Source: Patescibacteria group bacterium (GTDB lineage: Bacteria; Patescibacteriota; Microgenomatia; UBA10105; UBA927). From it: a stretch of DNA of 64,000 nucleotides. A program made the position numbers and the translations under genes. Shown one piece after another: positions 11,097 to 64,000 of the stretch. Numbering within the stretch: the stretch's first letter is position 1; every line of letters starts with the position of its first letter. Location: assembly GCA_041753515.1 (NCBI GenBank), contig JBGSUE010000040.1, positions 8,290 through 72,289 of the forward strand, given 5' to 3'. The notes under the pieces were generated by a model, which was not told the origin of the DNA, did not search any database, and saw nothing but the letters and a program-made list of their open reading frames with translations.

Positions 11097-11178
11097 GTCA
11101 TTCTGAGCCCCCGAGCACTAGAGGCGAAGAATCTCATCATGTCCAATAAATAGATTCTTCACTTCGTTCAGAATGACT
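11097..11178. repeat. inverted-repeat element E1 (type A: TGTCATTCTGAGC...GAAGAATCT / AGATTCTTCACTTCGTTCAGAATGAC)
   Basis: Near-perfect palindrome about 60 bp upstream of the GT2 start at 11037. Confidence 0.7.
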
Positions 11179-12592
11179 ATAATCGTTTCAACAATGTCTC
11201 ATCACCATCGACGGGTTCATAGCGTGCGTAAATATACTGCTGCCATGCCCATGGAAGCGTACTCACCCTTTTCAAACCACTCTGATAAATATACGGGACA
11301 CGATTTTCCTCAAGAATACGGGGCAAATCCGGCAAAGGACGGGAGAGATATCCGGCAAACTGCCCGAACGGGATACAGCAGGCATAATACGCGTCCGGGT
11401 TGTACAGAAATACACCTGTTAGATCCAAAATCTGCTCGTCTTTTGGTACGTCTCTGTAATATTCTTCCACCTGTTTGATAAAATCAGCATTGGTCCAGGC
11501 TTGTTTCGGAATTGTTACCTCATTAAAAACTGATACCAAAAACAACGCGAGAACGGCAAAAAGTGGTAAAAATATTATTTTTGGTATACGGATACTCAGA
11601 TACAAAACAAAATCGGCAGCATACCACGCGATAAACACACCTATCGGGATTAAATACTGGGCATGTTTGAGAGGTGCAAACTGGACAAAAAAGATGATTT
11701 GTGCCCACATCTGAAGGCTGATAAGTACTTCCGATTTCGATTTTGCCGATATCAGGCGATAGACGGAAAAGAGAAGGGCAAGTACCCATATGCTGTGATT
11801 GACAAGTAGCCCCCTGTTCCACCCGTCCACGCCATAATAGATACTGTTGGGATAAAAAAACAGGTCCTGCATCATGATAAACGTCTGACTTATTTTGTTG
11901 GCTTCAACCGGTAACTTGAACAGTGAATAAAATACCAATGGAAAATTTCCAAGCGTTAAAACCCAAATCCCAAATACTGCCATCGGAATCGTCATGCCCA
12001 TTATGAAAGGTTTCAGTTTCCTGCTCAATACTGCCATACCAAATCCTATGGCAATATTAGGCACCATTTTGGGCAAAACCAGATACGACAGAGCATACAA
12101 CGCCCCCGACACCATATGTTTCTTTTTTATCTGAAAATAGATAGCAGCCAATAAAAGAAGTGTTGCCAGGTTATCCGGCCGGATTTCCAGATACTTGTCA
12201 AACGGAAGAGGCAGAAATGCCAGAAGTGCGGCGGCAAGAACAGCTCCCCAGACACTTTTTCTCACCTCCCAAAAAATCATACCGGACATGACACACATCA
12301 TGGCAAATATCCAGAACGTCATGATCCGTGCCGTGATGAAAGGCTGGACTGTTCCCCATCCGGGCACGAGAGCAGAAATCAGGCTTACGGCATATCCGGG
12401 TGGAAAAAACGTGAGGAATTCGATATACGGTTTTTTTCCCTCCATCATTTTTGCAGCCCAGTGGAGGTGCGCAAACTCATCGGCATCAAAATAACGTGTC
12501 AAACCCAAACGGTAATGATACGAGAGAAAGTACAGAAAAAGAAATCCAGTAGCGACGAATAGTATTATCCGGTATATCTGTGTGGATTTCAT
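11177..12592 (-). CDS. GT-C-fold membrane glycosyltransferase, ArnT/PMT-like (start trimmed to MKSTQIYRIILFV)
   Basis: Polytopic protein. First-loop motif RYFDADEFAHLHWAAKM is the DxD/DE motif of GT-C. Paralog of 57056-58714 (RFFDSDEMSHMHWAW). Confidence 0.65.
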   Translation of the reverse strand: MKSTQIYRIILFVATGFLFLYFLSYHYRLGLTRYFDADEFAHLHWAAKMMEGKKPYIEFLTFFPPGYAVSLISALVPGWGTVQPFITARIMTFWIFAMMCVMSGMIFWEVRKSVWGAVLAAALLAFLPLPFDKYLEIRPDNLATLLLLAAIYFQIKKKHMVSGALYALSYLVLPKMVPNIAIGFGMAVLSRKLKPFIMGMTIPMAVFGIWVLTLGNFPLVFYSLFKLPVEANKISQTFIMMQDLFFYPNSIYYGVDGWNRGLLVNHSIWVLALLFSVYRLISAKSKSEVLISLQMWAQIIFFVQFAPLKHAQYLIPIGVFIAWYAADFVLYLSIRIPKIIFLPLFAVLALFLVSVFNEVTIPKQAWTNADFIKQVEEYYRDVPKDEQILDLTGVFLYNPDAYYACCIPFGQFAGYLSRPLPDLPRILEENRVPYIYQSGLKRVSTLPWAWQQYIYARYEPVDGDETLLKRL

Positions 12593-12611
12593 AGATAGAT
12601 GATACCGGAGT

Positions 12612-13064
12612 GTGCTATACTTTTCCAGCTTGTCCAAAGGTCGAACCGTCGACGCCCTTTTACATCCCCCAGAATGGAGAAAAAATGAAAACATCGAGTT
12701 GTTCGTACTGAGAATTGCAGAATGGGCACTCATCGCCCTGTCCGTAACCGGCACACTGCTGGGCGCAGCAACACTGTTCTCGCCCCAATCGGCGCCATGG
12801 GGTCCGATCACTGTCATCACCGGACTCATTCTGAATACGGTATTGGTGATTCATGCATGGCGCGCAAAGAGAGAACCTGTCCGGCAGTTTCATCCGTACC
12901 TATATCTGGTAGCCGTGATCCTCTTTTGCGTATTCGTCGGCTATTGGATTCTCACAGGGCTGATGGGTGAAGCGCTCTTCTCATACATGACGTTAGTATT
13001 GGCGATGGCGCTTCATGTCATCCGGCTGTCCACACCCCGGCTCAGAGCCCACTGGGCAAATTGA
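12612..13064 (+). CDS. small hydrophobic membrane protein, hypothetical
   Basis: 150 aa with 3-4 TM segments and coding-like composition. Overlaps only the doubtful N-extension of the GT-C ORF. Confidence 0.4.
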   Translation: MLYFSSLSKGRTVDALLHPPEWRKNENIELFVLRIAEWALIALSVTGTLLGAATLFSPQSAPWGPITVITGLILNTVLVIHAWRAKREPVRQFHPYLYLVAVILFCVFVGYWILTGLMGEALFSYMTLVLAMALHVIRLSTPRLRAHWAN

Positions 13065-13348: not shown

Positions 13349-14242
13349 ATGCCTGAAATATCACCGCAAACACAACAACTTCTGAAGGAATACACCGGCG
13401 GCATACCCAGGGATTCAAAAATTATCTCCGATAACAGCGCCACAGGTATCATCTCGGTATTGGAATACACATCCGGTAAACTTGCCGTAAAAAAAGCAAA
13501 AGAGCCTGATTTGCCAACCCGGGATGAAAATAGAATACTTGTAAGACGGGAAGCAAAAAATCTCGACGCAATATCCACAACCAAATATGCAAAAAATGTT
13601 CCATACGTTGCCGATGTGAAAGACGATGAAAAAGGCGTGAGTATTGTTATGGAGTATCTGGATGGTTATAAGAATCTGGATGAACAGATCAACTCCTATC
13701 CCCCCCTTGAACAACTGCAGATACTTTCACAAGCCAAACAGATCCTGGATGGTATTCAGGCTGATGCCCACATCACTCACCTTGATTTTAGCTTCGGCAA
13801 TATTATGGTGAAGGGCCTCGGAAAAAACCTGAAATTAAAGATAATTGATTGGGCCCAGGCAGTACCCAATGGTAATAATAAGCAACTCATTCAATCAGAA
13901 CAGTATTTCCTGTCATCAATGAACAAAATTATTCGAGGTGAACCCATACTCAGCGAAAAAATCCGCACCCTCACCACAGACCTGGAGACTATGACCCCTG
14001 AATCAGCAAAAAAGGCTGTCAACAGCTTCCTTGATCAAGCCAGACAACGGTACGCAACATATGCAACTCATGAACAATCCCGAAAGTTCAATCTGGACGT
14101 GATTGACAGCATCAGTATTTACAACAAATTGACACCAAAAGACACAGTGCAGAAGATTCTGGAATCCATTGAGCAAAAAACTGGAGAATATACAACAATT
14201 CCTGTATTTTACGAAAAAGAGCCTATTCCTGGCTGGACATGA
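13349..14242 (+). CDS. atypical protein-kinase-fold protein, Kdo/WaaP (lipopolysaccharide kinase)-like
   Basis: LAVKKAK (beta3 Lys), RREAKNL (alphaC Glu), catalytic ITHLDFSFGNIMV, and IIDWAQA in place of DFG. Confidence 0.5.
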   Translation: MPEISPQTQQLLKEYTGGIPRDSKIISDNSATGIISVLEYTSGKLAVKKAKEPDLPTRDENRILVRREAKNLDAISTTKYAKNVPYVADVKDDEKGVSIVMEYLDGYKNLDEQINSYPPLEQLQILSQAKQILDGIQADAHITHLDFSFGNIMVKGLGKNLKLKIIDWAQAVPNGNNKQLIQSEQYFLSSMNKIIRGEPILSEKIRTLTTDLETMTPESAKKAVNSFLDQARQRYATYATHEQSRKFNLDVIDSISIYNKLTPKDTVQKILESIEQKTGEYTTIPVFYEKEPIPGWT

Positions 14243-14925
14243 TGAGTGCTTCTGATCGTTTAAAACTGCTGGACGATATGGCCGGTGCTATGCAGGATAT
14301 TCACGATAACGGATTCGGATTTGAAGATTTCGGCATGCACCGTTTTGTCATTGAAATACCAAAAAAAGAGCAGGGAACGGTACAGACACATCTTATCGAT
14401 TATTCCGGCGCTATCCATCATCCATCCGAAGAAATCCTTGCAGATTCCCAATCATACCTCCGCCACACAGCATTCCATATCCTGACTCGTTCGGCAAACC
14501 ACATTCCTCCGGAAACATTTCGGGAAGTGGCTTTGATATTCGATGAACAGATTCCGTACAGGGATGCACTGGCACGCATACGCAAAGCAATCCAAACTGA
14601 CCGTACTCATACATACTGGGAAAAAGACGATCCCGATCCCATACCGATATCCTTTCTAGACAAGGCATATAATCTGCAGGATTTACACAGAAATGGATTT
14701 ATCTATCCACACTACCTTCGCAAAGAGACTTTTGCAGGAGGTCCATACGCATATGACGATACACTCCCGTCGCCCAGCTTGGAATCAATTAAAGAAACGA
14801 ATCTTGAGGATTTAGGATATTTTACGATATCAGAAATCAAAAACAGCCCTGTTATTAACCCTAAACTCGCAGACTGGGCAGTACAGCACGTCTACGGTGA
14901 ATCACACACCTACTGGCCTGTTTAA
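14239..14925 (+). CDS. kinase-like protein, C-lobe only (Kdo/WaaP-like catalytic segment MHDNGFGFEDFGMHRFVI...LIDYSGA); possibly a degenerate paralog
   Basis: ATGA start/stop overlap with the upstream gene. Lacks the N-lobe. Confidence 0.4.
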   Translation: MMSASDRLKLLDDMAGAMQDIHDNGFGFEDFGMHRFVIEIPKKEQGTVQTHLIDYSGAIHHPSEEILADSQSYLRHTAFHILTRSANHIPPETFREVALIFDEQIPYRDALARIRKAIQTDRTHTYWEKDDPDPIPISFLDKAYNLQDLHRNGFIYPHYLRKETFAGGPYAYDDTLPSPSLESIKETNLEDLGYFTISEIKNSPVINPKLADWAVQHVYGESHTYWPV

Positions 14926-15317: not shown

Positions 15318-15785
15318 ATGAAACAGGCGTTTCTCGATTCAAGCGTCCTGTTTACAGCCGTCAACTCCCCAACCGGCGGATCAGCCAAACTGTTTACTCT
15401 CCCAATTCAGCTTGTCACATCAACGTTTGTGTTGACAGAAGTCGAACGAAATGTCCGGGAAAAACTGCTCTCTCATCATCTGGACCGGTATTTCATACTT
15501 GTTAAACAAATGAAGATCGTGGAGGGTAAATCGGATACTAAACTGATTGAAAAAGCCAAAAAAGTCATTGTCGAAAAAGACTCACTTGTTCTTGCAGATG
15601 CCAAACTGTCACATGCTGAGTATCTGATCACTCTGGATCTCAAGTACTTCTTCACTCCACAAGCCCAAAAATTTCTCAAACCCACCCTCATCCTCACCCC
15701 AAAATGCTCATTGAAAAAATTTCCTGACTGTTTTAACGACCGTTTCGGTTTCGGAGTCAGTCAGTTCAGGAAACAGCGGCAGTGA
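15318..15785 (+). CDS. vapC: PIN-domain toxin (VapC-like)
   Basis: Acidic residues at FLDSSVL, TEVE, ADAK and ITLD. Follows the antitoxin by 6 bp. Confidence 0.7.
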   Translation: MKQAFLDSSVLFTAVNSPTGGSAKLFTLPIQLVTSTFVLTEVERNVREKLLSHHLDRYFILVKQMKIVEGKSDTKLIEKAKKVIVEKDSLVLADAKLSHAEYLITLDLKYFFTPQAQKFLKPTLILTPKCSLKKFPDCFNDRFGFGVSQFRKQRQ

Positions 15786-16814
15786 TAAAACTTCCCTGCT
15801 CTGTGCTTCAGACTCGGGGAAGTCGCCTTTTTTGTAGCCTAAATATGCAAATGCTTTCGTCAGGTGGACCGGGACGGGATAATGGACGGCACAGCCAACA
15901 CCATGATCCAAAAGATGTTTCATGAGCTTATCTCGTTTCTTTGTGCGTACAACATAAAGATGATGACTGGATTTGGAGGAAGGTGAAAGGTGAAAGGTAA
16001 AAGGTGAAAGGTCTCCGATATTTGATAATTCCCGGTCATAAAACGAAGCAATTTCCTTCCGTCGTCTATTCCATGCATCCAGATGCCGGAGCTTGATGGA
16101 AAGAATTGCCGCCTGCAGTTCATCCAACCGTGAGACGCCTGATACAACTTCACTTTGGTATCGTGCTTTCTCCCCGTACTGCCGCAGCATTTTTACGCGG
16201 CCGGCTAATGAGGATGAATCCGTCACGATCATTCCCCCGTCCCCCATGGCTCCCAGATTTTTTGACGGATAAAAACTGAAAATTGCCGCGTCTCCCAGTG
16301 TCCCAACTTTTTTCCCCTCAATCACTGCTCCATGCGCCTGTGCGGCATCCTCTAGTAGATATATCTTTCTTTTCGCATTATTGAGTATATTTTGTAGACC
16401 GATAATATCTGCCGGATTGCCATACAGGTGTACCGGAATCACGGCTTTTGTCTTTTCCGTCACACGCTTCGCCAGATCATCGGCAGACATGTTTCCGTCC
16501 GGTCCGCAATCTGCCAACCGTATTGCAGCACCGGAAAGAGCTACCCCAAACGCATTGGGGTATGCATTGGCAGGGATGACAACCTCATCACCAGGCATAA
16601 GTCCGAACGCTTTCAGTACCAACGTGAGGGCATCCGTCCCGCTGGCCACCCCTATTGCATGATAGCTGCCCAGATAATCGGCAAACTCATCTTCAAACAT
16701 TTTCACTCGTGGCCCCAATGTAAAGTACCCATTCTCCATGACCGTATGGACTGCGGATTTCAACTCTGTTTCGATACTTTTATACTGTCTGGTTAATTCA
16801 AATATTGGAATCAT
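15708..16814 (-). CDS. DegT/DnrJ/EryC1/StrS-family sugar aminotransferase (second copy)
   Basis: 368 aa. LLEDAAQAHG...FSFYPSKNLGAMGDGG. Contains a repeat-encoded insert SPFTFHLSPSS. Confidence 0.85.
   Translation of the reverse strand: MIPIFELTRQYKSIETELKSAVHTVMENGYFTLGPRVKMFEDEFADYLGSYHAIGVASGTDALTLVLKAFGLMPGDEVVIPANAYPNAFGVALSGAAIRLADCGPDGNMSADDLAKRVTEKTKAVIPVHLYGNPADIIGLQNILNNAKRKIYLLEDAAQAHGAVIEGKKVGTLGDAAIFSFYPSKNLGAMGDGGMIVTDSSSLAGRVKMLRQYGEKARYQSEVVSGVSRLDELQAAILSIKLRHLDAWNRRRKEIASFYDRELSNIGDLSPFTFHLSPSSKSSHHLYVVRTKKRDKLMKHLLDHGVGCAVHYPVPVHLTKAFAYLGYKKGDFPESEAQSREVLSLPLFPELTDSETETVVKTVRKFFQ
15974..16008. repeat. heptanucleotide tandem array (GGTGAAA)n: ggaggaa ggtgaaa ggtgaaa ggtaaaa ggtgaaa, inside the aminotransferase CDS
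   Basis: Direct reading. Minus strand reads TTTCACC units, the same unit that ends the leuS array. Confidence 0.7.
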
Positions 16815-16821
16815 AATGGTC

Positions 16822-16883
16822 TGTCATTCTGAACAAAGTGAAGAATCTATTCACTAGATCCTTCGCTCACGCTCAGGATGACA
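16822..16883. repeat. inverted-repeat element E2 (TGTCATTCTGAACAAAGTGAAGAATCT ... AGATCCTTCGCTCACGCTCAGGATGACA)
   Basis: 8 bp upstream of the aminotransferase start at 16814. Overlaps the 3' end of the GT2 pseudogene. Confidence 0.7.
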
Positions 16884-17586
16884 AACGGTACAGTATCATA
16901 TCAATAATCGTCGGAATGATGGTTCTAAGGCTTCCTCCCCCCGCCCCTTCCTCATCGGTCCGGGCTTTGTGGGCAATCGTTGTTTCCGCCACACGAAAAC
17001 CGGCACGGACCGCATCGATAATCATCTCCGCATCCACAAATGCGGAACGGGTTGAAAGATCAATCGAATCAATGACTTGTTTTTTTACGAGCCGGATGGA
17101 ATTGACGTCATGAATACTGATCCCGTAGAAGAATTTAAGAAGTGTATTGTAAATTTTCGACTGCCGCAAACGCGTTTCCGGATCCCTGCGGTTCACCCGC
17201 CAGCCGATAATCAAATCTGCATCACCTACAAGTTGTGCCAATGTTTGCAGTTCTTTGGGGTCCAGCTGTCCGTCACCGGGAACGGTAAACAGCCACTCAT
17301 ACCGTCAGGTTTTATAGAGTTCCTGTATGGTTCCCCCATACCCCTGATTCACCGTATGGGTTAAAACAGTAAGTTGTGGGTATTTCTTTAAAAGATTATT
17401 CAATACATCGCCCGTTCCGTCACGGCTTGCATCATTTATCACCATGATTTCGTATGTCCTGGTAATTTTTTTGGCAATAGTATCTGCTTTTAAAATTACT
17501 GATGCAACAGTCTCTTCATCATTGTATGCAGGTATGAGGATTGATACGGACGGAAAACGCATAGGATATTTTCCATATGATATCAT
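16873..17586 (-). pseudogene. DPM1-like GT2 with a single in-frame TGA at 17305-17307 (two track ORFs, 17305-17586 and 16873-17241, share one frame)
   Basis: Continuous translation is ...NQGYGGTIQELYKT[TGA]RYEWLFTVPGDGQLDPKELQTLAQLVGDADLIIGWR... The DxD-region alignment is uninterrupted, so one codon is replaced by a stop. Confidence 0.55.
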
Positions 17587-17619
17587 GCTGATGATATATG
17601 TGCATGTAACAAGAAATTA

Positions 17620-17704
17620 TGTCATTCTGATCCGCCAGTTGGCGGAGAAGAATCTAGTTTAAAAAATTAGATCCTTCACTCGCCTTCGGCGGTTCAGGAT
17701 GACA
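17620..17704. repeat. inverted-repeat element E3, 2 bp upstream of the ATG at 17707 and 34 bp upstream of the divergent start at 17586
   Basis: tgtcattctgatccgccagttggcggagaagaatct ... agatccttcactcgccttcggcggttcaggatgaca. Both inner arms are palindromic. Confidence 0.7.
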
Positions 17705-17706: not shown

Positions 17707-19263
17707 ATGAATGTAATTATGAGATTAACGAAAAATTTTATTCTTTTCTTTTTTATCGCCCAGATATACATATTCCTCTCCAATTATCATCTTCTGATTC
17801 TTGCGTCCCATACGCCGCAAGGCGCCAGATTTACGTGGAACCATATTGCCTACTGGTCCATGGACCACAATGTCTACCTGTCTGTCATCAATCAGGGAGC
17901 GCGCGGTGAGTGGCTCATGCGGGATGCGTACACCGCAGAGCCCACACATCCGACGTTTTTCTATTTCTTCTATATACTTCTCGGGAAAATAAGCGGTGCC
18001 CTCAACATCCTGCCTGATACCGCGTATCTGTGGGCTAAACTTATCGGCGTTGAATTTTTTGTCCTGTCTCTGTACTTTCTCAGTAAAAAAATACTGGGAA
18101 AGAATGGCATATGGGCTTCACTTCTTGCACTGTCCATAAGCGCCCTGCCGGTCCTCAACTGGGATACCCGCTACTACCATGAATTCTGGCCCTGGTGGGC
18201 CCGCTTTGATGCAATCCTGCGTCTGGACAACATGCCCCACTACCTCTGGAGCTGGGGACTATTATGCCTCTTTGCCGCCACCTGGTTTTCATATATGAAA
18301 GGAAAAAAAACTTATCTTCTTGTGCTATCTTCTATCTTCTCCCTTCTATCCTCTATGTTCCTCCCCTCGTCCGCCATCCCCATCATCGCGGGTCTGGGCG
18401 TCCTGTGGCTGCTATCCAAAAAACACCGCACCGGCACAGCTTTTTTTGTAGCAGCAATCGTCGCCATTCCGCTCCTATTAACCTACCGGGAAAAATTCAA
18501 CGGTTTTCCATGGACTGAGTGGTACCTATTTGAACTTGACACATGGAACCGCCAGGCAACCCATTTCAATATCGAATTTTTGCTTTCAGCCGGATTATTA
18601 CCAATCCTGGCATTGGTCGGCATACGGAAAAATAATCCTTCCTCCATTTTTCTGGCAGTGTGGGCTTTCCTACCCTTTTTTCTTCTCCCTTTCTCCTCAC
18701 TCCTGGGGCTCTCCAAATACCGCCTGGCATCAACCGGCGTCTTTATCCCATTCGCGCTTTTAAGCATTCAGGCTATTCAATATTTCAAAAAAACCGGTGT
18801 TTTGCTGATATGCATCTCTATTGCTTTTTCAATCATCACATCACTTTACATTTTCACCAATCTCAACCGCACCGCCCAAGAATACCCTGTTTACGCAAAC
18901 GTGTATATTCCAAAAGAAATGATGGATATTTTTTCATATCTCAATACGAATGCAGACGCCACCGATGTGATTGTGAGTGACTGGGTCAGCGGTAACCTAT
19001 TCCCTGTTTTTACACCCGTTACGGCATTCACAGGCCACCCTGTCCACACAAGAAACTTTTTCGATAAAACCGCATGGTATGGATCATTGTACCGGGGAGA
19101 ACTGACACAAAAAGACGCGGAAACAAAGCTTGGGGAATACCGGATTACATATATTCTTCACGGACCTGCGGAAAAGAGAATCGGTGTATCGCTGTCAGCA
19201 TATACGTTCCTGAAAAAAGTGTATGTGATGGGAGACTATAAATTATACAAAGTAGAATTATGA
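17707..19263 (+). CDS. polytopic membrane protein of an uncharacterised GT-C-like paralog family (member 1 of 7)
   Basis: N-terminal signature FTWNHIAYWSMDHNVYLSVINQGARGEWLMRDAYTAEP. C-terminal signature AYTFLKKVYVMGDYKLYKVEL. More than 10 TM segments. Confidence 0.55.
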   Translation: MNVIMRLTKNFILFFFIAQIYIFLSNYHLLILASHTPQGARFTWNHIAYWSMDHNVYLSVINQGARGEWLMRDAYTAEPTHPTFFYFFYILLGKISGALNILPDTAYLWAKLIGVEFFVLSLYFLSKKILGKNGIWASLLALSISALPVLNWDTRYYHEFWPWWARFDAILRLDNMPHYLWSWGLLCLFAATWFSYMKGKKTYLLVLSSIFSLLSSMFLPSSAIPIIAGLGVLWLLSKKHRTGTAFFVAAIVAIPLLLTYREKFNGFPWTEWYLFELDTWNRQATHFNIEFLLSAGLLPILALVGIRKNNPSSIFLAVWAFLPFFLLPFSSLLGLSKYRLASTGVFIPFALLSIQAIQYFKKTGVLLICISIAFSIITSLYIFTNLNRTAQEYPVYANVYIPKEMMDIFSYLNTNADATDVIVSDWVSGNLFPVFTPVTAFTGHPVHTRNFFDKTAWYGSLYRGELTQKDAETKLGEYRITYILHGPAEKRIGVSLSAYTFLKKVYVMGDYKLYKVEL

Positions 19264-19976
19264 AAACGACCGTCATTTTACCGGCACACAATGAAGAAGA
19301 GGTCATCGGCAAGATGGTTACTATGATCAATTCGCTTTTCGATACATGGGTATCCCAGTTAATTGTCGTTGACGATTGTTCAAGCGACAAAACAGCGCTC
19401 ATAGTGAAAAAACTGCAAAAAAAGGACAATCGCATAGTGCTCATCCAAAGAAATCCTCCAGGAGGTGTCGGGCTTGCACTGCGGGAAGGACTCAAACATG
19501 TAGCAAAATCGTCTGACTGGATACTGACGCTTGATGCGGATTTTACCCGCAATATTCCTGATCTTTATGAATTTTTTGCCAGTACGAAAGGTGTCGATGG
19601 ATTGATAGGATCACGATATATGATGCCAAACTCTCTTGTGAGATACCCGTTTTTCAAAAAAGTTTTCAACAGGCTGTTCCACCTTGCGGTCCGCATTATT
19701 TTCGGCGTCACAAATCATGACCTGACGAACAATTTCAAACTGTATAAAAAATCTATGTACCTGAAGCTCCCGCTGTCTGAAAACAGCTATGCCATAAATG
19801 CCGAAACCGGACTGTATCCCATTCTCATGGGATATAAAATAAAGGAACTTCCCGTCACCTGGTACGCGAGAACTCATGATGAAGGGATTTCAAAATTCAA
19901 GCTTCTGTCATTCGGTCCCGCGTACGGACGGGTCATCCTCAATGCATTCAGGCTTTTTCGACAACGACGAGGATAA
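19260..19976 (+). CDS. GT2 polyprenyl-phosphate sugar synthase (DPM1-like)
   Basis: VILPAHNEEE...VVDDCSSDKT...LDADF...GSRY. ATGA overlap with the upstream GT-C gene. Confidence 0.8.
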   Translation: MKTTVILPAHNEEEVIGKMVTMINSLFDTWVSQLIVVDDCSSDKTALIVKKLQKKDNRIVLIQRNPPGGVGLALREGLKHVAKSSDWILTLDADFTRNIPDLYEFFASTKGVDGLIGSRYMMPNSLVRYPFFKKVFNRLFHLAVRIIFGVTNHDLTNNFKLYKKSMYLKLPLSENSYAINAETGLYPILMGYKIKELPVTWYARTHDEGISKFKLLSFGPAYGRVILNAFRLFRQRRG

Positions 19977-20649: not shown

Positions 20650-20654
20650 GACAA

Positions 20655-21773: not shown

Positions 21774-21804
21774 GAAATTTCCATTTCAGTATATGCATGC
21801 GACA

Positions 21805-21839
21805 AATTCATAATTCGTAATTCATAATTTGTAATTGAA
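21805..21839. repeat. (AATTCRT)n heptamer array: aattcat aattcgt aattcat aatttgt aattgaa
   Basis: Lies between the epimerase stop and the SGNH start at 21773. Confidence 0.7.
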
Positions 21840-21843
21840 TAAA

Positions 21844-23771: not shown

Positions 23772-23792
23772 AGCGTAGAGTATAATACATTC

Positions 23793-49977: not shown

Positions 49978-49978
49978 T

Positions 49979-51724: not shown

Positions 51725-51740
51725 GAATTACCCATTCCAT

Positions 51741-51821: not shown

Positions 51822-51859
51822 TAAGACTGCGTGAGTACTGCATAGTATGACGTGCAATC

Positions 51860-53422: not shown

Positions 53423-53455
53423 GGTGGAGAATGTATTAGTTAACATGCAAATTAT

Positions 53456-53550
53456 GTCATCGCGAGTCCGTTCTGACGGCGTGGCGATCCCGACGGGATT
53501 CCTGCCTGCCGGCAGGCAGGACTTCGTCTCTACGTTCCTCGCAATGACAC
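53456..53550. repeat. inverted-repeat element E10 (type B) containing the second copy of the perfect 20-bp palindrome CCTGCCTGCCGGCAGGCAGG (about 53502-53521)
   Basis: tgtcatcgcgagtccgttctgacggcgtggcgatcccgacgggattcctgcctgccggcaggcaggacttcgtctctacgttcctcgcaatgaca. Confidence 0.7.
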
Positions 53551-53600
53551 TTTTAAACAAATTTCATCTTTGTTATACCTGTTATTATATAATAGATGCC

Positions 53601-57025: not shown

Positions 57026-57055
57026 CCCCCATAGTGTACTATTGTCCTGTATCAT

Positions 57056-58714
57056 ATGTCCAAAACAACGAAGTATATTCTGATCGGTGCAGTCGCCATA
57101 CTTGTGTTTCTCCGGCTTCATATGGGCATCACCCGTTTTTTTGACTCCGATGAAATGAGCCATATGCACTGGGCGTGGCTTGTATCCCGTGGCGATGTGC
57201 CCTTCCGCGATTTTTTCTATTACAATCTTCCCGGTTACCAATATGTGATCCTCTGGCCGTTTTTCCTGCCTGCCTCATCCGGTATTCTCATCATCACCCG
57301 CCTCTGGCAGTTTTTAATGTACCTGGCAACCGTCGTCCTTCTGTATCGTTTTACTAAACGCCTGACAAACAGTTCCGTCATCGGTCTTCTGTCCTCCGTT
57401 ATCTTTCTTGCCTTCCCCATGACATTCGATAAAACAATCGACATCCGTCCTGACATGACGATGATGCTGTTTTATCTTGCGGCGCTTGAACTTACTCTCA
57501 CCACAAAAATTTGGTCACAGTCACGGGCTTTTTTTCTTGGATTTCTCATTGCGCTCTCAATCGGTGTGACGCTCAAAACCATCGTGTTTGCCCTGCCGGC
57601 ACTCCTCTTTGTTTTTTTTACCAACAAACCAAAACCGAGCCCGATACAGACCATCACGGCATTGTCCGGGATCATTCTTCCGGCTCTTGTGTATTTTTTG
57701 TATCTTACTGTCACTGATGCGCTCATTCCCGCAATCACCATGATCACAAAAGACGCCTTTGCGGTAAATGCCGGCAAAGGCACATTCTCTCCCTGGAAAG
57801 CCTTGTCCCCCTATCCCCTTGTCTATCTGGCGGAGGGCGGCGTATCCCTCCCATGGATCATAAACACCGGAATCTGGATTCTGTCAGTTGTGGGGTTTAT
57901 CAAACTGATCCTGACGAAAAAATCCAAAAGTGCGTTTCTTGTCATATATTTTTTCTTCGGTATCATATTTCTTTTTCTCTTTCCGGCTCCGTACTTGCAG
58001 TATTTTCTCCCGCTGTCCGTCTTTGTTTCCGTCCTTGCCGCGATAGCTATCCAAAAATATCAGTCTGCCCCTTTAGCATTCGTCGTCTGTGCACTTCTTG
58101 TAAGTTCATTTTTTATCCAATATAAAGAGCGGACAGGAATAAAAAACTCCAATGCAGAACAACTCAGCGTCATCTCCTCAACGCTTGAAATGAGTCGCCC
58201 CAATGAAACATTTTATGATATGGTGGGCTCCTACATATTCCGTCCGGACGGGTTTATCCTCTGCTGCCATCCATACAATGAATTTGCCGACCGATTGTCC
58301 ACACAAGTACCGGCCCTGCGCGATTCGCTAATTGAGCGCGAAACGAAATTCATCGTCATGGACCGGACTGCTATTGTTTTCTGGTATCCCTATCCCCAAG
58401 ACCTGACATTTCTTAAATCGCATTATTTCGTATCGGAAAAAAACTGGAAAATATACCTGCATGGCTACAGATTCGGATGTATGGATGGAAAATGCACACA
58501 GTACGATATTGAAGATACCCCCGTATCACCCGCTTCATCATTTTATATTATCGGCGCCGATACTTACAGAGTGACCGTCACACCCCAAAACCAGACTGTG
58601 GCAATCGACGGCGTTTCGTACGGCAACAGTGCAACGGTCCCGTTGTCAAAAGGTAATCACACCTTCACCGCCGACCCCGCCGTCACCTCCTGGACCATTC
58701 AACTAAACAGGTAA
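57056..58714 (+). CDS. GT-C-fold membrane glycosyltransferase, ArnT/PMT-like
   Basis: RFFDSDEMSHMHWAWLVSRGDVPF is the GT-C acidic motif. Paralog of 11177-12592. The beta-rich C-terminal domain is probably periplasmic. Confidence 0.65.
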   Translation: MSKTTKYILIGAVAILVFLRLHMGITRFFDSDEMSHMHWAWLVSRGDVPFRDFFYYNLPGYQYVILWPFFLPASSGILIITRLWQFLMYLATVVLLYRFTKRLTNSSVIGLLSSVIFLAFPMTFDKTIDIRPDMTMMLFYLAALELTLTTKIWSQSRAFFLGFLIALSIGVTLKTIVFALPALLFVFFTNKPKPSPIQTITALSGIILPALVYFLYLTVTDALIPAITMITKDAFAVNAGKGTFSPWKALSPYPLVYLAEGGVSLPWIINTGIWILSVVGFIKLILTKKSKSAFLVIYFFFGIIFLFLFPAPYLQYFLPLSVFVSVLAAIAIQKYQSAPLAFVVCALLVSSFFIQYKERTGIKNSNAEQLSVISSTLEMSRPNETFYDMVGSYIFRPDGFILCCHPYNEFADRLSTQVPALRDSLIERETKFIVMDRTAIVFWYPYPQDLTFLKSHYFVSEKNWKIYLHGYRFGCMDGKCTQYDIEDTPVSPASSFYIIGADTYRVTVTPQNQTVAIDGVSYGNSATVPLSKGNHTFTADPAVTSWTIQLNR

Positions 58715-58716
58715 TC

Positions 58717-58745
58717 TTGACACAAAATCGCCATCCTGATAGTCT
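58717..58745 (+). promoter_or_regulatory. promoter TTGACA-N17-TAGTCT, 7 nt upstream of the ATG at 58753 (leaderless-type)
   Basis: Direct reading of 58717-58752. Confidence 0.45.
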
Positions 58746-58752
58746 GTAGTCC

Positions 58753-59493
58753 ATGAGTGAGACGGGTGATGAACAGCTGTTGCCTCCTGAAAATTATACG
58801 AAGGTCATTCTTATTGCCATCGGTGCGGTTGCGGTGTTGAGCGCAATCACCATTGGTGCATACCAGTATGCAAAAAAACGCTCCGGTGTGGTGGTACTAC
58901 CGGGCGGCACCACATATCTGGGGCCATCCGATACCCCCGTCCAACCACCTCCCGAAACAGAACCCGCAAAACCGGTCATTGATGAAAACACAAAATGGAT
59001 AGAACATAAAGGCATCGACCACCCGTTCACATTTCTCTACCCCGAGTCCATCGAACTGGTCACATTTCCCAAAGACATCACGGAATCGGCCGGATTCGGC
59101 TGGGGAAATATCCAACCGCAGAGTAATCTTCTGTTCCGCATTATTGATATCAACGCATCGGAACCCGCGATGGTAAAATACATCAACCAGCCCAAAATCG
59201 AATATGTGAAACACTGGTGGGAACAGTATACCGGCGGCCTGAAAGGCGTCGAATCGGTGACCCCATTCACAAACTCCCGCGGCATGAAGGGATACCGGGC
59301 AAAATATTTGAACCATTCGGATCAGACCCCCAACGACGATATCTTTTTTGAAGTGCCCGGTAGACGCGACCTGATGGTCCGTTTTGGTAACGGTCCCCTG
59401 GAAAAAACGGTATTCGATAAAATAATCGACTCATTTTCCTGGGGAAAAACTGCACAACCTACAACCATTTCATCCCCAATTCCATCCCCGTAA
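58753..59493 (+). CDS. hypothetical single-pass membrane protein with Pro-rich linker and extracytoplasmic domain
   Basis: One TM segment (VILIAIGAVAVLSAITIGAY), then PVQPPPETEPAKP. No recognisable domain. Confidence 0.5.
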   Translation: MSETGDEQLLPPENYTKVILIAIGAVAVLSAITIGAYQYAKKRSGVVVLPGGTTYLGPSDTPVQPPPETEPAKPVIDENTKWIEHKGIDHPFTFLYPESIELVTFPKDITESAGFGWGNIQPQSNLLFRIIDINASEPAMVKYINQPKIEYVKHWWEQYTGGLKGVESVTPFTNSRGMKGYRAKYLNHSDQTPNDDIFFEVPGRRDLMVRFGNGPLEKTVFDKIIDSFSWGKTAQPTTISSPIPSP

Positions 59494-59514
59494 AAACGTG
59501 GTATAGTTGTTCAC

Positions 59515-61014
59515 ATGCAGGCGTTATTGTGGATCGTCATTGTTTTACTGACATCACTCTATGCATTAGGCAAATACCTCGTCGGTGTATCCCATACCCC
59601 TCCGGGATCTGTGTTTTTGGGTACAGTCCACTACCCCACGGATTATTTTATTTATCTGTCCGAGTATGCCTGGGGGCGGCACAGCTGGTTTTTCAATAGG
59701 GTTTTGCAGTCAACCGAGGCGCCTGGTGACAATCTCATCCGGTGGGTCAACGTATTCTGTGGTCATATATTCTCTCTCTTCGGCCTCAATCAGATCACAG
59801 CTTACCAAATCTCCGTTGTTCTTTTTACGGTAAGTATCATATATCTCTCATATACACTTCTTGTTAAAATATTGAAATCACGTCATGAGGCATTATACGG
59901 ATTATTCGTCTATCTGACAGCCAACGCATTCCCGGGCTGGGACGGATCAAATCTTTCCACATTCGATTTCTGGTACAACCAGGGAAATCCCCTCAACCGT
60001 CTCATCAACGTCCCCCATCATCTGTTGGGGCAAATTGCGCTCCTTGCTCTCGTTTACATCTGGATATCAAAAAAGAAAAATCTTCTTTCATTTGTGGTTG
60101 CCATCATCTGCGGCATGATTCTGGCAGGCGTGAACGGTGTGCATCTCCTGTTCGCAGCCGGCATCATGAGTGTGTCCCGTTTATCACTCCCTGTACTTTT
60201 TTCACTCATCGGCGCAGCCCCGATACTTTTATCTGTCAGGCACACATTAAGCATTCCCCCTCTCTCCAATATGATCATTTGGGAAACAAACAACCAAATG
60301 ATTCTGACCCCATGGCGGCTGTTTCTGGGATACGGCCCGATATTATTGTCCTTATTGCCTGCAACAATCATGTACTTGAAAAAACCTGACAGATTCAGAA
60401 TTTTTTCCCTTCTGTTCACATGGATCAGTCTTCTATTGTTTCTTTCCCCTATTCCAAAACTTCTTCATTTGGGAAACGTCCGGTTTCTCATACCCTTCAC
60501 TCATATACTTCTCAGCATCATGGTTATTGACATACTACGCAGAATAAAAATTCAGACAATAAAAACAATTATTGTTTCTGTATATATCGGGGTATCTGCA
60601 CTATCTTTGTATGCAACAGGGACAAAAATATATGCGCTCTACCAAAACCCCGCAAATCCCTTTTATTATCTGCCGAAACCAGTCTATTCTCTCTTTGCCT
60701 ATTCTGGAAATATATCCAAACCGGATGATGTATTTCTTTTAGGATGGCCGTACAACGCGATATTCCCTGGCATCTCCGGGTCACAATCATATTTTTCCGA
60801 AGTCCTCCTGGTAAAAGATCCGGTTGAAACCGGAAAATTGGCGGAAATATTTTTTTCAGACGAGTCACCGATCCCAGAGCGGATACAGTTTCTCAATCAA
60901 TTCGGTATCACCTACATCATTCATCGGGAAGAAACACTCTCCCCATCGTCTGGTCTTCCCATCCAACAAATCAGATCAGAAGGCGGATTTACATTATGGA
61001 AAGTCGTGAAGTGA
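59515..61014 (+). CDS. GT-C-like paralog family member 7
   Basis: PPGSVFLGTVHYPTDYFIYLSEYAWGRHSWFFNRVLQSTEAPGDN. C-terminus IRSEGGFTLWKVVK. Confidence 0.55.
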   Translation: MQALLWIVIVLLTSLYALGKYLVGVSHTPPGSVFLGTVHYPTDYFIYLSEYAWGRHSWFFNRVLQSTEAPGDNLIRWVNVFCGHIFSLFGLNQITAYQISVVLFTVSIIYLSYTLLVKILKSRHEALYGLFVYLTANAFPGWDGSNLSTFDFWYNQGNPLNRLINVPHHLLGQIALLALVYIWISKKKNLLSFVVAIICGMILAGVNGVHLLFAAGIMSVSRLSLPVLFSLIGAAPILLSVRHTLSIPPLSNMIIWETNNQMILTPWRLFLGYGPILLSLLPATIMYLKKPDRFRIFSLLFTWISLLLFLSPIPKLLHLGNVRFLIPFTHILLSIMVIDILRRIKIQTIKTIIVSVYIGVSALSLYATGTKIYALYQNPANPFYYLPKPVYSLFAYSGNISKPDDVFLLGWPYNAIFPGISGSQSYFSEVLLVKDPVETGKLAEIFFSDESPIPERIQFLNQFGITYIIHREETLSPSSGLPIQQIRSEGGFTLWKVVK

Positions 61015-61064
61015 TATAATCCTTTTACTCTGCCTACTCTTGCTCTTTTCCATCCCGCACAGAT

Positions 61065-61150
61065 TGTCATCCTGAGCGAGAGTGAAGGATCTCGTTTTTG
61101 GGGAGAAAGAGGGTTTCCCAACCCAACCCGTGAGCGACCGTCCACTCCCC
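61065..61150. repeat. half-copy of the type A element (tgtcatcctgagcgagagtgaaggatct) fused to a second hairpin (tttttggggag...ctccccaaaaa)
   Basis: Direct reading. Lies upstream of the ATG at 61182. Confidence 0.55.
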
Positions 61151-61181
61151 AAAAATAGTACACATATAAGGAAATGCACAC

Positions 61182-61610
61182 ATGTTCAAACTCAATACGC
61201 TTATCTTGATATTGCTGGGATTACCGATATACTTAACAACCCGCAGTGAAAATCTCTTCTGGTTTTCTGTGTGGGTTGCAGTACTGGCACTGTATCTGCT
61301 TATCAGCCTGATCAACAGTTTCAGGCTAAATCCTGATCCGTTACAGCTGAGTGCAGGAAGCAAGCAAAACATGTGGTTTACATGGCTTCCAAGCACAAAA
61401 GCAATTCTGCTGTACGAATTCGCCTGGCAAACATTTCTGAAACTTACAATAATCTTCTTTGCCATTTCCAGATTCTGTGCAGATTCAATTGCCTCCATCC
61501 GAAGTTTCTCAATATTCTTTCTCATGGCGGCAATAGCGATGCTTATCCTCTTCCTGCTAACGCTGCTGTTTTTCCGATTGAAAGAAGGCGCACATCAATT
61601 TAAAAAATAA
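61182..61610 (+). CDS. small membrane protein (4 TM), hypothetical
   Basis: Hydrophobic throughout. No recognisable domain. Confidence 0.45.
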   Translation: MFKLNTLILILLGLPIYLTTRSENLFWFSVWVAVLALYLLISLINSFRLNPDPLQLSAGSKQNMWFTWLPSTKAILLYEFAWQTFLKLTIIFFAISRFCADSIASIRSFSIFFLMAAIAMLILFLLTLLFFRLKEGAHQFKK

Positions 61611-61759
61611 CAACAGTTCAATTATCTTGGCGCAGATGCATATACATATCGTTTTTTTCATGGGAGTGAAAAACGATGGTCATATCGGACCCTGCGCCGG
61701 AGGACACGGTTTTGAAATGTTGAAACTGTGCGGGATGGAATTTGTTATAATCAGATCAC

Positions 61760-62113
61760 ATGAAAAAATTGCGGATTTTTGGATTTATTGTTATTGGCAT
61801 TTTTGTATTTCTCTTTTTATATTTGCGCACCAAAAATACAGAACCTGCACAGACCGCAACAACCCCGGACAATCCCAAAAACTGCCAGGTGAAGGAGTGT
61901 GAAAACGGTCAGTCGCAGATCTATCTTGAGGGCATCGGGTGGAGCCCGTGTGCCGACCGGTGCAGTAAACAGGATCTGGAAAACAACGGAGGCAAAAAAT
62001 CATGTGACTGCCCCCAAAACAGCGAATCAAAGACCTGCACAAATATCTGTCTTACCTTCGGAGATCCATGCAGCACTCAATACGATTACTACCAATGGAC
62101 AGGCTGCAGATAA
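61760..62113 (+). CDS. small Cys-rich secreted or membrane-anchored protein (10 Cys), hypothetical
   Basis: N-terminal TM or signal segment FGFIVIGIFVFLFLYL. CQVKECENGQ...CADRCSKQ...CDCPQNSESKTCTNICLTFGDPC. A -10-like TTATAAT lies 9 nt upstream of the ATG. Confidence 0.45.
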   Translation: MKKLRIFGFIVIGIFVFLFLYLRTKNTEPAQTATTPDNPKNCQVKECENGQSQIYLEGIGWSPCADRCSKQDLENNGGKKSCDCPQNSESKTCTNICLTFGDPCSTQYDYYQWTGCR

Positions 62114-62131
62114 TTTGGTTTAATAGTCTTC

Positions 62132-64000
62132 ATGGACGATGAATCTGCCGCACCTTCTGCATTTGAAAAACTGGCCGCACAATTCCGTACACATCCTTCA
62201 CGGTTTATTCTCCCCATTCTTATCCTCGGATTTCTTCTGCGCGTCGTCTTTCTCCCAAATCCCGGTTTTGAAGCGGATATTTCATTCTGGAAATCCTGGG
62301 GACTTGCCACATATGACCATGGTGCCGTCTGGGGAATTGAAAACACCAATAACAACTACCCCACGCCGTTTACCTATGTTTTAGGCATGATGACATGGGT
62401 CTATAGTTTATTTGCCGATCCCCACAACTTTCAGGAATACTGGTCAAATACGAATCTCCTGTTTTTGACTATCAGCAAAATGCCTGCAGTGATCGCAGAT
62501 TTTATTATTTTCTGGCTTTTCATCTTTATCGGAAAACACGCGAAAAAACTCGGATTTCCTGAACTTCCTTTCTCCATATACGTTCTTGCAGGTGTTGCCT
62601 TCTTTCTGTCGCCAATTACGATCATGGATAGTGCATGGTGGGGTCAGGTTGATAGTCTCGGTGTTCTGGTATTTCTGTTTGCCTTTTATCTTGCGCTCAC
62701 AAGAAAACCATATTTGGCGGGATTCATCTATATGGCTTCAATGATGACCAAACTCCAAAACATGATCTACGGTCCCCTGTTTTTTATCCTCCTCTGGCAG
62801 ATGACCGGCTATAAGGGGCTTCTGAAAGGCATGTTCGGCGCGGCTACCGCATTCATCGGGCTCAACTGGGAATTCATGATGGCGCGCAAAATGAACCTGG
62901 TTTTTGAATCGTTAACGGTCAATTACGATTACTTTCCGTTCATGTCCCTCAATGCGTACAATCTCTGGTGGCTCGTGGCCAAGGCCGACGGCATGCATAC
63001 ACTGGATAAATTCAGTGTTGTCGGCATAATAAATGCCAAAACGGTTGGACTATTTATTTTTTCTTCTCTTTATTTGCTATCAGTGTTAATCATGATAAAA
63101 GAAACGATCCGCATGATGTGGAAAAATTCCATTACAACGCTCACGGAGCAAAACACGCAGGACATTCTGTACAATTTTTTTTCCGGCATGATCATCGTCG
63201 CATGCGCATTTTTTCTCTTCCAAACCCAGTCCCATGACCGCTATGCGTTTCCTCTTGTTGTCCTTCTGCCGTTTTGGCTGTTATTTTTCCTGAAACGAAG
63301 TCTGACAAAAACGGAGCGCACAACACTCTACTCCACAAAATTATTCAAAAACTCCGTCCTATATTTCAGTATATTTACTCTCTTCTATTTTTATAACCTC
63401 CATAATGCAATGGTCGACAATTATCCGCTGAACGGTTTCCCGTTTGTACGCGACCTGAACATTCCGGCGGCCACAATCATCACGTCTGTCGTCCAGCTTA
63501 TTCTTTTTTTCGCATTTCTCTGGGCACTAGCCCGACACATATCTCCATACTGGTATGCGGTACCTCTCGGAACGGTCATCCTCCTGCTGACTATATCAAA
63601 TCTGCCGCTCATCACCCGCACTCCAGTGTCCATCAACCGTTTCTTCCCGATTATAAACCAACAAGGGTATGGAAAAATGCAAAAAAATATGCCGGTAAAC
63701 GCTCACCAGGGATTCAATTACTGGTCGCCTCTTTCGGTCCAATATGCGTTTTACAGAAACGGATACGGAACACATGCAAAAAGCTATCAATTGTTCAATA
63801 TTGCCGGAAAATTTGCCAAATTCTCGACAGACTATGGCATCGATACGGATGCCGGTGGGGCGGCATCCGCTACATTTGAAATTTACGGCGACGATAAACC
63901 GCTATATATCTCCGAAAAAATTGGACGGTACGAATATCCTCGGCATGTGGAAGTGGACGTAACGGGTGTCAAAATGCTCGGACTTGTCACCAACGATGCA
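62132..64000 (+). CDS. GT-C-fold membrane glycosyltransferase-like protein with C-terminal NPCBM carbohydrate-binding domain (partial; runs off window end)
   Basis: ATG at 62132 with the frame open to 64000. About 13 TM segments. C-terminal HAKSYQLFNIAGKFAKFSTDYGIDTDAGGAASATFEIYGDDKPLYISEKIGRYEYPRHVEVDVTGVKMLGLVTNDA matches the NPCBM consensus. Confidence 0.6.
   Translation, partial: MDDESAAPSAFEKLAAQFRTHPSRFILPILILGFLLRVVFLPNPGFEADISFWKSWGLATYDHGAVWGIENTNNNYPTPFTYVLGMMTWVYSLFADPHNFQEYWSNTNLLFLTISKMPAVIADFIIFWLFIFIGKHAKKLGFPELPFSIYVLAGVAFFLSPITIMDSAWWGQVDSLGVLVFLFAFYLALTRKPYLAGFIYMASMMTKLQNMIYGPLFFILLWQMTGYKGLLKGMFGAATAFIGLNWEFMMARKMNLVFESLTVNYDYFPFMSLNAYNLWWLVAKADGMHTLDKFSVVGIINAKTVGLFIFSSLYLLSVLIMIKETIRMMWKNSITTLTEQNTQDILYNFFSGMIIVACAFFLFQTQSHDRYAFPLVVLLPFWLLFFLKRSLTKTERTTLYSTKLFKNSVLYFSIFTLFYFYNLHNAMVDNYPLNGFPFVRDLNIPAATIITSVVQLILFFAFLWALARHISPYWYAVPLGTVILLLTISNLPLITRTPVSINRFFPIINQQGYGKMQKNMPVNAHQGFNYWSPLSVQYAFYRNGYGTHAKSYQLFNIAGKFAKFSTDYGIDTDAGGAASATFEIYGDDKPLYISEKIGRYEYPRHVEVDVTGVKMLGLVTNDA

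Follow-up and report, generated by a model that had tools for sequence, protein, structure and literature searches.

A lineage-conserved island of sixteen GT-C-fold genes, with a putative role in envelope glycosylation, in a Gottesmanbacteria-like bacterium

Sixteen GT-C genes of four classes

We describe a gene island in a 64,000-nucleotide stretch of contig JBGSUE010000040.1 (positions 8,290 to 72,289; Patescibacteria group bacterium, assembly GCA_041753515.1). This whole stretch is referred to as the window, and positions are given within it. The island is rich in genes for large membrane glycosyltransferases of the GT-C fold, which are accompanied by family 2 glycosyltransferases (GT2) and by sugar-tailoring enzymes. 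A preliminary description had counted 16 large polytopic GT-C-like genes in about 53 kb, and hydropathy analysis indeed finds exactly 16 large polytopic open reading frames (ORFs) in 11177-64000, with lengths of 403-674 aa and 5-9 transmembrane (TM) segments. Named by their first position, these are 11177, 45614, 48611, 49979, 51860 and 55463 on the minus strand and 17707, 24746, 27717, 29363, 30782, 36375, 54221, 57056, 59515 and 62114 on the plus strand, the last one continuing beyond the window end. They total 25.5 kb, or 48% of the 53-kb interval.

Structure and profile evidence upholds the earlier GT-C assignment: all 16 genes encode GT-C-fold proteins. The 16 ORFs are all intact with their family-invariant residues kept, and each carries an Asp-containing motif shortly after TM1 (also 30782 and 36375), which is the place where GT-C enzymes carry the catalytic acid. 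The Asp in the first external loop (EL1) is invariant in FamA (D42, 67 sequences), FamA' (D30-x-D32-E33, a DxDE motif) and FamB (D40), the three families introduced below. The longest-ORF starts probably lie too far upstream in three cases; family alignments place the start near M80 (11177), M47 (51860) and M73 (55463).

Based on all-against-all BLASTP, the proteins were sorted into FamA (n=7: 17707, 24746, 27717, 49979, 51860, 55463 and 59515), FamA' (n=2: 11177 and 57056), FamB (n=3: 29363, 48611 and 54221) and four singletons (30782, 36375, 45614 and 62114). FamA', FamB, 30782 and 36375 (7 genes) form one loose PMT_2-like group, given the PMT_2 domains in their homologues and the links between their hidden Markov models (HMMs). 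Four classes result: FamA with seven genes, PMT_2-like with seven, YfhO-like with one, and one GT87/PIG-M-like gene with a C-terminal NPCBM domain. These classes cannot be joined by sequence, as hhalign between the families gave weak links alone, and PDB sequence searches with the FamA, FamA' and FamB profiles (shallow or deep) returned nothing significant. A direct Pfam/NCBIfam search of the 16 proteins, a check proposed in the preliminary description, was informative for a minority: 36375 (PMT_2) and 45614 (YfhO) pass the Pfam thresholds, 30782 and 54221 have sub-threshold PMT_2/PMT matches, and 12 lack any match. Structure comparison, also proposed there, was more rewarding. Models were made for two of the 16, namely 24746 (FamA) and 57056 (FamA'), and both match PglB, STT3 and ArnT; the other 14 proteins were assigned by homology.

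The FamA genes are located at 17707-19263 (plus strand; FamA HMM E=6.8e-38), 24746-26254 (plus; the modelled representative, pLDDT 96.6), 27717-29363 (plus; 1-nt overlap with the FamB gene 29363-30574), 49979, 51860 and 55463 (all minus, within a GT-C-dense stretch at 47745-57241) and 59515 (plus, within 57056-61014). A profile search yielded 66 homologues, all unannotated and just one of them with a Pfam domain (a DUF). The Pfam scan of the 67 aligned members gave scattered noise and no STT3 match in any member. Coherence of the family is nonetheless strong: an HMM built from orthologues outside the window retrieves all seven paralogues (E 6e-175 to 1e-17), and D42, R167, H173 and R323 (24746 numbering) are invariant across them, the Arg and His residues being situated in later loops. 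We conclude that FamA is a GT-C family described by no curated Pfam or NCBIfam model; since these models miss it, standard annotation labels its genes "hypothetical".

From the model, the nearest solved structures of FamA are STT3/AglB/PglB, AftA and ALG12. In Foldseek against the PDB, STT3 chains take the top 11 places, followed by DPY19, AglB and PglB. The structural-match values are 18.5 for ALG12, 16.9 for both AftA (435 residues aligned) and STT3B, 15.9 for DPY19, 15.3 for ALG9, 15.2 for Pmt4, 14.6 for ArnT, 14.5 for PglB and 14.3 for AglB. Sequence identity to any oligosaccharyltransferase (OST) is just 11-13%. The consensus and conserved columns of FamA show no WWDYG-like motif (DK/MI motifs were not looked for), the conserved C-terminal motif being PALSGHT. 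The similarity of FamA to GT66 (STT3/AglB/PglB) thus concerns the fold alone, without WWDYG and without a Pfam STT3 match.

Within the PMT_2-like group, the two FamA' genes are found at 11177-12829 (minus strand) and 57056 (plus). The AF2 model of 57056 (pLDDT 93.1) has a beta-sandwich domain at its C-terminus and matches PglB, STT3, ALG12, ArnT (TM-score 0.54) and AftD with Foldseek prob 1.0; Pmt4, AftA and Emb are further matches. FamB comprises 29363-30574 (plus, directly after 27717-29363) as well as 48611 (minus) and 54221 (plus), the latter two within 47745-57241. Many homologues carry PF13231 PMT_2, both for FamA' (at 40-58% identity) and for FamB (at 40-60% identity), whereas 11177, 57056, 29363 and 48611 themselves have no Pfam PMT_2 match and 54221 stays below threshold (19.1 bits vs a cut-off of 26.1). 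The singleton 36375-38018 (plus) is a clear PMT_2 (GT39/GT83-like) protein with 41.1 bits vs the same cut-off of 26.1; its orthologues occur in nearly all related loci, and an HMM built from homologues outside the window connects it to FamB (E 2e-6). In the same way, the FamA' HMM connects 30782-32170 (plus) to FamA' (E=3.7e-8), the gene's own PMT_2 match being sub-threshold (E=8.8e-5, 23.2 bits vs 26.1). Among the 16, 30782 is the weakest GT-C assignment.

The two remaining classes have one gene each. At 45614-47638 (minus) lies the YfhO-family gene (44.8 bits vs a cut-off of 28.5), in which the match is limited to the C-terminal part (profile positions 741-835 of 835). This protein further shows a sub-threshold DUF7657 match, C-terminal similarity to PgfM1/PgfM2 and a DD motif after TM1, and sequence search found no relative in the PDB. 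The GT87/PIG-M-like gene at 62114-64000 (plus, cut by the window end) is fused to a C-terminal NPCBM domain (1.9e-20). A full-library search found 1,595 relatives; among 71 aligned ones, 29 carry GT87 and 16 carry PMT_2, with PIG-U, ALG6/8 and ALG3 in others. Its profile finds GPI mannosyltransferase 1 (PIG-M) in the PDB at 2.8e-14, and D55 is nearly invariant in the family.

Donor synthases and tailoring genes

Seven GT2 genes are present in the window: five intact short ones, one interrupted by a stop codon and one of another type. The intact short GT2s (10285, 19260, 32974, 34570 and 43523) measure 223-267 aa and have zero predicted TM segments. A profile made of 10285, 34570, 43523 and an orthologue of 16873 finds ArnC at 1.8e-31 (residues 6-235), the dolichyl-phosphate mannose synthase (DPMS) of P. 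furiosus at 1.3e-24 and GtrB at 2.8e-22. The next GT2 follows at 7.8e-15 with its N-terminal half only, which places ArnC, DPMS and GtrB ahead by 7-16 orders of magnitude. Single sequences of 19260 and 32974 behave as the profile does, P. furiosus DPMS and ArnC being the closest solved proteins for 19260. Because the profile favours these three over the whole catalytic domain, the short GT2s are best regarded as DPM1/ArnC-type synthases of polyprenyl-phosphate sugars. None of the five has the C-terminal TM helices that occur in bacterial GtrB/ArnC and in archaeal DPMS, and in this they resemble the eukaryotic DPM1 and mycobacterial Ppm1 type.

The other two GT2 genes deviate. The gene at 7330-8346 (minus strand; 338 aa, Pfam Glycos_transf_2 2e-28) has three C-terminal TM segments and orthologues at 62-70% identity. 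In NCBIfam it is most similar to EpsD, MftF and PgaC without reaching their cut-offs, and it is not of DPM1/ArnC type. In the DPM1/ArnC-like gene at 16873-17650 (minus), the reading frame is broken by a TGA at 17305-17307, a site occupied by Gly or Ala in paralogues; the orthologues of this gene in relatives are intact. Recoding of this TGA (code 25) was ruled out: TGA, TAA and TAG are the ordinary stop codons in the window and TGA is the commonest one, closing 24 of 52 genes. The gene therefore represents a pseudogene, a strain variant or a sequencing error. Of the seven DPM1-like GT2s announced earlier for 11177-64000, all are present in the window and the short ones are of that type, whereas 7330 is of another type, 16873 is interrupted, and both 7330 and 10285 are located upstream of 11177.

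All tailoring enzymes listed in the preliminary description are present: five epimerase/dehydratases of the short-chain dehydrogenase/reductase (SDR) type, three methyltransferases, a sulfotransferase, an APH-type kinase, a RIO-like kinase, a split transketolase, two DegT aminotransferases and a hexapeptide acetyltransferase. Two of them (aminotransferase 8347 and acetyltransferase 9580) are again upstream of 11177. The tailoring enzymes all stay below the NCBIfam equivalog cut-offs, so that no particular sugar can be assigned to them.

These genes for cytoplasmic tailoring of nucleoside diphosphate (NDP) sugars are interleaved with the GT-C and GT2 genes. An Arn-like string running in one direction (8347-12829, minus) holds GT-C 11177, short GT2 10285, hexapeptide acetyltransferase 9580 and DegT aminotransferase 8347, and recurs in the related loci L003, L006, L009, L010 and L014. 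The other DegT aminotransferase (15708-16814, minus) adjoins the interrupted GT2. Short GT2 19260-19976 (plus) has a 4-nt overlap with FamA gene 17707, and this gene overlap makes the two a coupled GT-C/donor-synthase pair. A minus-strand group at 19948-22824 follows, with methyltransferase 19948, membrane-anchored GDSL/SGNH hydrolase 20655 and SDR 21844; orthologues of the latter (65-73% identity) adjoin the 24746 orthologue in relatives. Further on, SDR and GT2 genes alternate at 32085-36288: SDR 32085 (minus), GT2 32974 (plus), SDR 33713 (plus), GT2 34570 (minus) and SDR 35335 (minus). A sugar-modification module (38020-44194, minus) again runs in one direction, with GT2 43523, methyltransferase 42786, sulfotransferase 41798, APH-family kinase 40723, SDR 39780 and the split transketolase 38994/38020. 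The GT-C-dense stretch at 47745-57241 includes methyltransferase 47745 (minus) and HAD phosphatase 53325 (plus), the latter beside FamB gene 54221 (plus). The sole transporter found in the window is an EamA/DMT-family protein at 23754-24650 (plus; Pfam EamA 1e-24), with EamA genes also in related locus L002. It might serve as a flippase for the lipid-linked donor, for which it is a candidate.

Conservation, age and surroundings of the island

Homologues of the window proteins come almost solely from Candidatus Gottesmanbacteria and other Patescibacteria metagenome-assembled genomes (MAGs). A core order of pilin, 5314, 7330, (DegT, hexapeptide acetyltransferase, GT2), 11177, GT2, SDR 21844, 24746, 27717, 36375, 54221 and 29363 recurs in 13 genome loci, which come from Gottesmanbacteria-like MAGs and one Woesebacteria MAG. 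The full order is seen in the longer loci, from at least 10 distinct genomes, so the synteny comparison proposed earlier gave a positive outcome. Related 21-kb loci contain 5-7 GT-C genes each. In addition, the 3.4 kb of 57788-61243, with three gene junctions, are matched at 100% identity by an independent Logan contig that stems from a sequencing run. A chimeric mis-assembly, put forward in the preliminary description as a possible refutation, is excluded by the synteny across MAGs together with this contig.

The preliminary description also implied that the paralogues arose by recent local duplication, which does not hold. The four classes are unrelated in sequence, and identity among paralogues of one family is 17-36%, below that to orthologues elsewhere (40-46% for 24746, 47.5% for 27717, 60% for 48611 and 58% for 57056). 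Apart from short repeats between genes, self-BLASTN of the window gives a single match, of 159 nt at 72%, and no duplicated genes. Recent in-locus duplication is thereby ruled out, and the GT-C cluster is ancient, not recently amplified.

The island starts further to the left than the 11177 proposed before, at roughly 3775-5314. It is opened by a polytopic membrane protein with about 9-10 TM segments and a C-terminal TPR domain (5314-7383, plus), with orthologues in the same position in L003/L004, L008, L009, L011, L013, L014 and L016. Sequence searches of Pfam and the PDB matched the TPR part alone and nothing in the membrane domain; the conserved GVGxxNF, GRP and H motifs of the protein may recall O-antigen-ligase/Wzy-type proteins. 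Next to it are three tandem type IV pilin-like genes (3775-4290, 4295-4834 and 4845-5372, all minus), which share 29-31% pairwise identity, have GFTLIE-type N-termini and all pass the Pfam N_methyl threshold. A pilin orthologue adjoins the island in related loci L010 and L014. We regard the three flanking pilins as candidate acceptors only.

GC content is uniform (42-47%) from about 4 kb to 64 kb of the window, coding density is 92% over the 57-kb block right of 5314-7383, and no tRNA or Rfam features were found across the window. The left end is occupied by a leucyl-tRNA synthetase gene (LeuRS, 1-1748, minus). Between this gene and the pilins lies a 2-kb AT-rich gap (1749-3774; GC about 0.32 vs 0.44 elsewhere) with no ORF above 117 aa, no tRNA and no Rfam match. 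The gap was checked as a replication origin, and a DnaA-box cluster was not found; such a non-coding gap is unusual beside a region of 92% coding.

Compared with relatives, the extras are the RIO-like kinase genes, a PIN-like gene, a RelE/RHH pair and a 4-TM ORF between 24746 and 27717. The RelE/HigB-like gene, its RHH antitoxin-like partner and the small 4-TM ORF (26251-27444, minus; sub-threshold Pfam matches) separate two FamA genes (24746 and 27717) that adjoin in relatives. The weak PIN-like ORF at 15318-15785 (plus) likewise has a sub-threshold Pfam match. Two soluble ORFs, 44275-45636 (plus, 453 aa) and 14239-14925 (plus, 228 aa), have zero Pfam/NCBIfam matches. Between GT-Cs 57056 and 59515, in the same orientation, a TM-anchored protein of 246 aa is encoded (58753-59493, plus). 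It has a Pro-rich linker, ends in a C-terminal tail rich in Pro, Thr and Ser, and matches no family; a role as acceptor or as accessory subunit is conceivable. The 152-aa ORF at 61067-61525 (minus) is of low complexity and odd composition and has no matches. It appears spurious, and 61015-62113 is probably intergenic. Finally, short hairpin-type intergenic repeats are situated at gene ends across the island (11152-11182, 16823-16885, 17647-17704, 38910-38971 and 49898-49977; also 30582-30618 and 47648-47684). One type reads GTCATTCTGAACGAAGTGAAGAATCT...TCAGGATGAC, and a second, CATCGCGAGCCAAGCTCAGCTTGGCGTGGCGATC, is a GC-rich palindrome of 37 nt; these repeats possibly represent terminators or REP-like (repetitive extragenic palindromic) elements.

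A lipid-linked donor scheme, its alternatives and its meaning

Taken together, we favour with moderate confidence the view that the island, conserved in its lineage, serves envelope glycosylation in a Gottesmanbacteria-like bacterium of the Candidate Phyla Radiation (CPR) and works by lipid-phosphate sugar donors and GT-Cs at an unusual scale. In such a scheme, cytoplasmic SDRs, DegT aminotransferases, the N-acetyltransferase, methyltransferases, the kinase, the sulfotransferase and the split transketolase would remodel nucleotide sugars. The five intact TM-less GT2s of ArnC/DPMS/GtrB type would put these sugars onto polyprenyl phosphate, and the lipid-linked monosaccharides would be flipped, possibly by the EamA protein. 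The sixteen GT-Cs of four classes would then transfer the sugars outside the membrane, yielding a complex glycan associated with the wall, glycosylation of surface proteins (e.g. pilins) at multiple sites, or both. The general course from tailored NDP-sugar via GT2 lipid loading to extracytoplasmic GT-C had been proposed before and fits the evidence; the Arn, Gtr, CsbB/YfhO and GT136 systems are established examples of it (PMC11127046). We infer the use of lipid-linked donors from the fold of the GT-Cs and the neighbouring ArnC/DPMS-like GT2 genes. Functional coupling of synthases and GT-Cs is supported by the 17707/19260 overlap, the Arn-like string and the 43523-38020 module. Since no initiating phosphoglycosyltransferase, Wzx, Wzy or ABC exporter was found among the scanned window ORFs, monosaccharide-phosphate-lipid donors are favoured over en-bloc pathways.

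The idea that each lipid-linked sugar has its own GT-C finds no support, given five intact and one disrupted DPM1-like GT2s vs 16 GT-Cs and no GT2 among the distal nine GT-Cs. With at most six donor synthases for 16 GT-Cs, several GT-Cs would have to use a common donor and be distinguished by their acceptors or linkages. A number of observations weigh against the scheme as a whole. None of the recognised flippase types (GtrA, ArnE/F, MATE) and no nucleotidyltransferase for sugar activation was detected in the window. Only five of the six DPM1-like GT2 genes are intact, and the nine GT-Cs of the distal 18 kb have no adjoining donor synthase. The GT-C calls of 30782 and 45614 come from weak or partial profile matches, and the closest Foldseek structures of FamA are oligosaccharyltransferases, which use diphosphate-linked oligosaccharides and not monophosphate sugars.

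The last point leads to an alternative in which FamA proteins are divergent OST-like (STT3/AglB/PglB-like) enzymes that glycosylate surface proteins (pilins, S-layer), the paralogues differing in acceptor specificity. It draws on the Foldseek ranking, with STT3 chains as the top 11 PDB matches before DPY19, AglB and PglB, on the invariant EL1 Asp and later-loop Arg/His, and on the three pilin genes whose adjacency is repeated in relatives. The C-terminal match of FamA is not OST-specific, however, because ArnT too has a related periplasmic domain. Moreover, a WWDYG-like motif is not seen in the consensus (PALSGHT being conserved at the C-terminus), identity to any OST is 11-13%, and the window has no initiating phosphoglycosyltransferase or Wzx for a lipid-PP-oligosaccharide. 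We therefore consider this alternative unlikely, though the OST-like structure of FamA and the flanking pilins keep a protein-glycosylation reading open. In its boldest form, FamA would be a new GT-C family limited to Gottesmanbacteria and Microgenomates, nearest to STT3/AglB/PglB, with seven ancient paralogues per genome glycosylating pilins or other surface proteins. This is improbable to a similar degree, but if true it would mean that OST-like enzymes have radiated in CPR bacteria under new rules of acceptor choice, and that a genome of about 1 Mb holds an island for an envelope glycome as complex as that of mycobacteria.

It might also be argued that the GT-Cs work one after another, polymerising or branching with specificity for a linkage, and jointly build one large extracytoplasmic wall polysaccharide, as mycobacterial Emb/Aft/Mpt do, instead of modifying numerous separate acceptors. 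The ratio of 16 GT-Cs to at most six donor synthases would agree with this, as would the structural matches to AftA (435 residues aligned), AftD, AftB and Emb and the C-terminal carbohydrate-binding-type domains of two GT-Cs (NPCBM in 62114, beta-sandwich in 57056). The HAD phosphatase adjoining a GT-C further recalls the dephosphorylation step of decaprenyl-phosphoribose synthesis. Genes for primer or linkage-unit synthesis and an exporter are absent from the window, and we hold this possibility to be rather unlikely; it overlaps the favoured lipid-phosphate donor scheme rather than excluding it. Highly improbable, on the other hand, is an assembly artefact or a decaying pile of paralogues (pseudogenes) without coordinated function. 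Such an origin might be suspected from the GT2 with an in-frame stop, the scattered toxin-antitoxin-like genes and hairpin repeats and the metagenome-assembled source, but GC content (42-47%) and coding density (92%) are those of a uniform, compact region, all 16 GT-C ORFs are intact with family-invariant residues, gene order is kept in at least 10 independently assembled genomes and the Logan contig is identical.

Among known systems, the Arn pathway is paralleled by the string 11177-10285-9580-8347, which follows its logic with enzymes of the same families. Of solved structures, ArnC is the best relative of the short GT2s, and ArnT is among the structural matches. Differences are that the island GT2s miss ArnC's C-terminal TM helices, that there are 16 GT-Cs instead of one, and that equivalents of ArnA and ArnD as well as ArnE/F are lacking. 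To our knowledge, CPR bacteria have been reported to lack lipopolysaccharide, which makes lipid A an unlikely acceptor. The three-component principle of synthase, flippase and GT-C is established, including a GT-C (GT136) with a C-terminal carbohydrate-binding module (PMC11127046), a feature shared by 62114 with its C-terminal carbohydrate-binding domain. Like GtrA/B/C, CsbB-GtcA-YfhO and PPPRS-MATE-GT136, the island combines a lipid-phosphate sugar synthase with a GT-C, and 45614 belongs to the YfhO family. Unlike these systems, it has no recognisable GtrA, GtcA or MATE flippase, many GT-Cs per synthase and four GT-C classes together.

The mycobacterial set (EmbA/B/C, AftA-D, PimE, MptA-C; Ppm1) is comparable in its number of GT-Cs and few shared donors. 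There, decaprenyl-P-arabinose and polyprenyl-P-mannose serve as two lipid donors for more than a dozen GT-Cs of arabinogalactan and lipoarabinomannan (LAM) synthesis. The TM-less DPM1-type donor synthase (cf. the Ppm1 catalytic domain) and the structural matches to AftA, AftD, AftB, Emb and PimE add to this likeness. Mycobacterial GT-C genes are dispersed over a 4.4-Mb genome, whereas the island is packed in about 53 kb of a CPR genome and shows no sequence-level GT53, GT85 or GT89 membership. STT3/AglB/PglB (GT66) are the best Foldseek matches of FamA, which has a C-terminal domain resembling that of AglB and the conserved EL1 Asp; in contrast, the window has no genes for lipid-linked oligosaccharide assembly and FamA has no Pfam STT3 match.

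Such an island, or an expansion of GT-Cs in CPR bacteria, was not described in the literature searched on CPR/Patescibacteria. The kind of system is known; the novelty lies in its scale, with 16 GT-Cs taking up 48% of 53 kb in a lineage of small genomes, in the presence of four classes together, and in FamA, which curated models do not cover. The island offers testable gene sets (GT2/GT-C pairs, the Arn-like module, and the transketolase/kinase/sulfotransferase module), which are usable for heterologous reconstitution and for finding new lipid-linked sugars. The genomes of CPR/Patescibacteria are tiny, and these bacteria live attached to other cells. That about 25 kb is spent on 16 GT-Cs in one conserved island implies that extracytoplasmic glycosylation is central to the biology of the organism, perhaps in attachment, in immunity to phage or host, or in envelope integrity.

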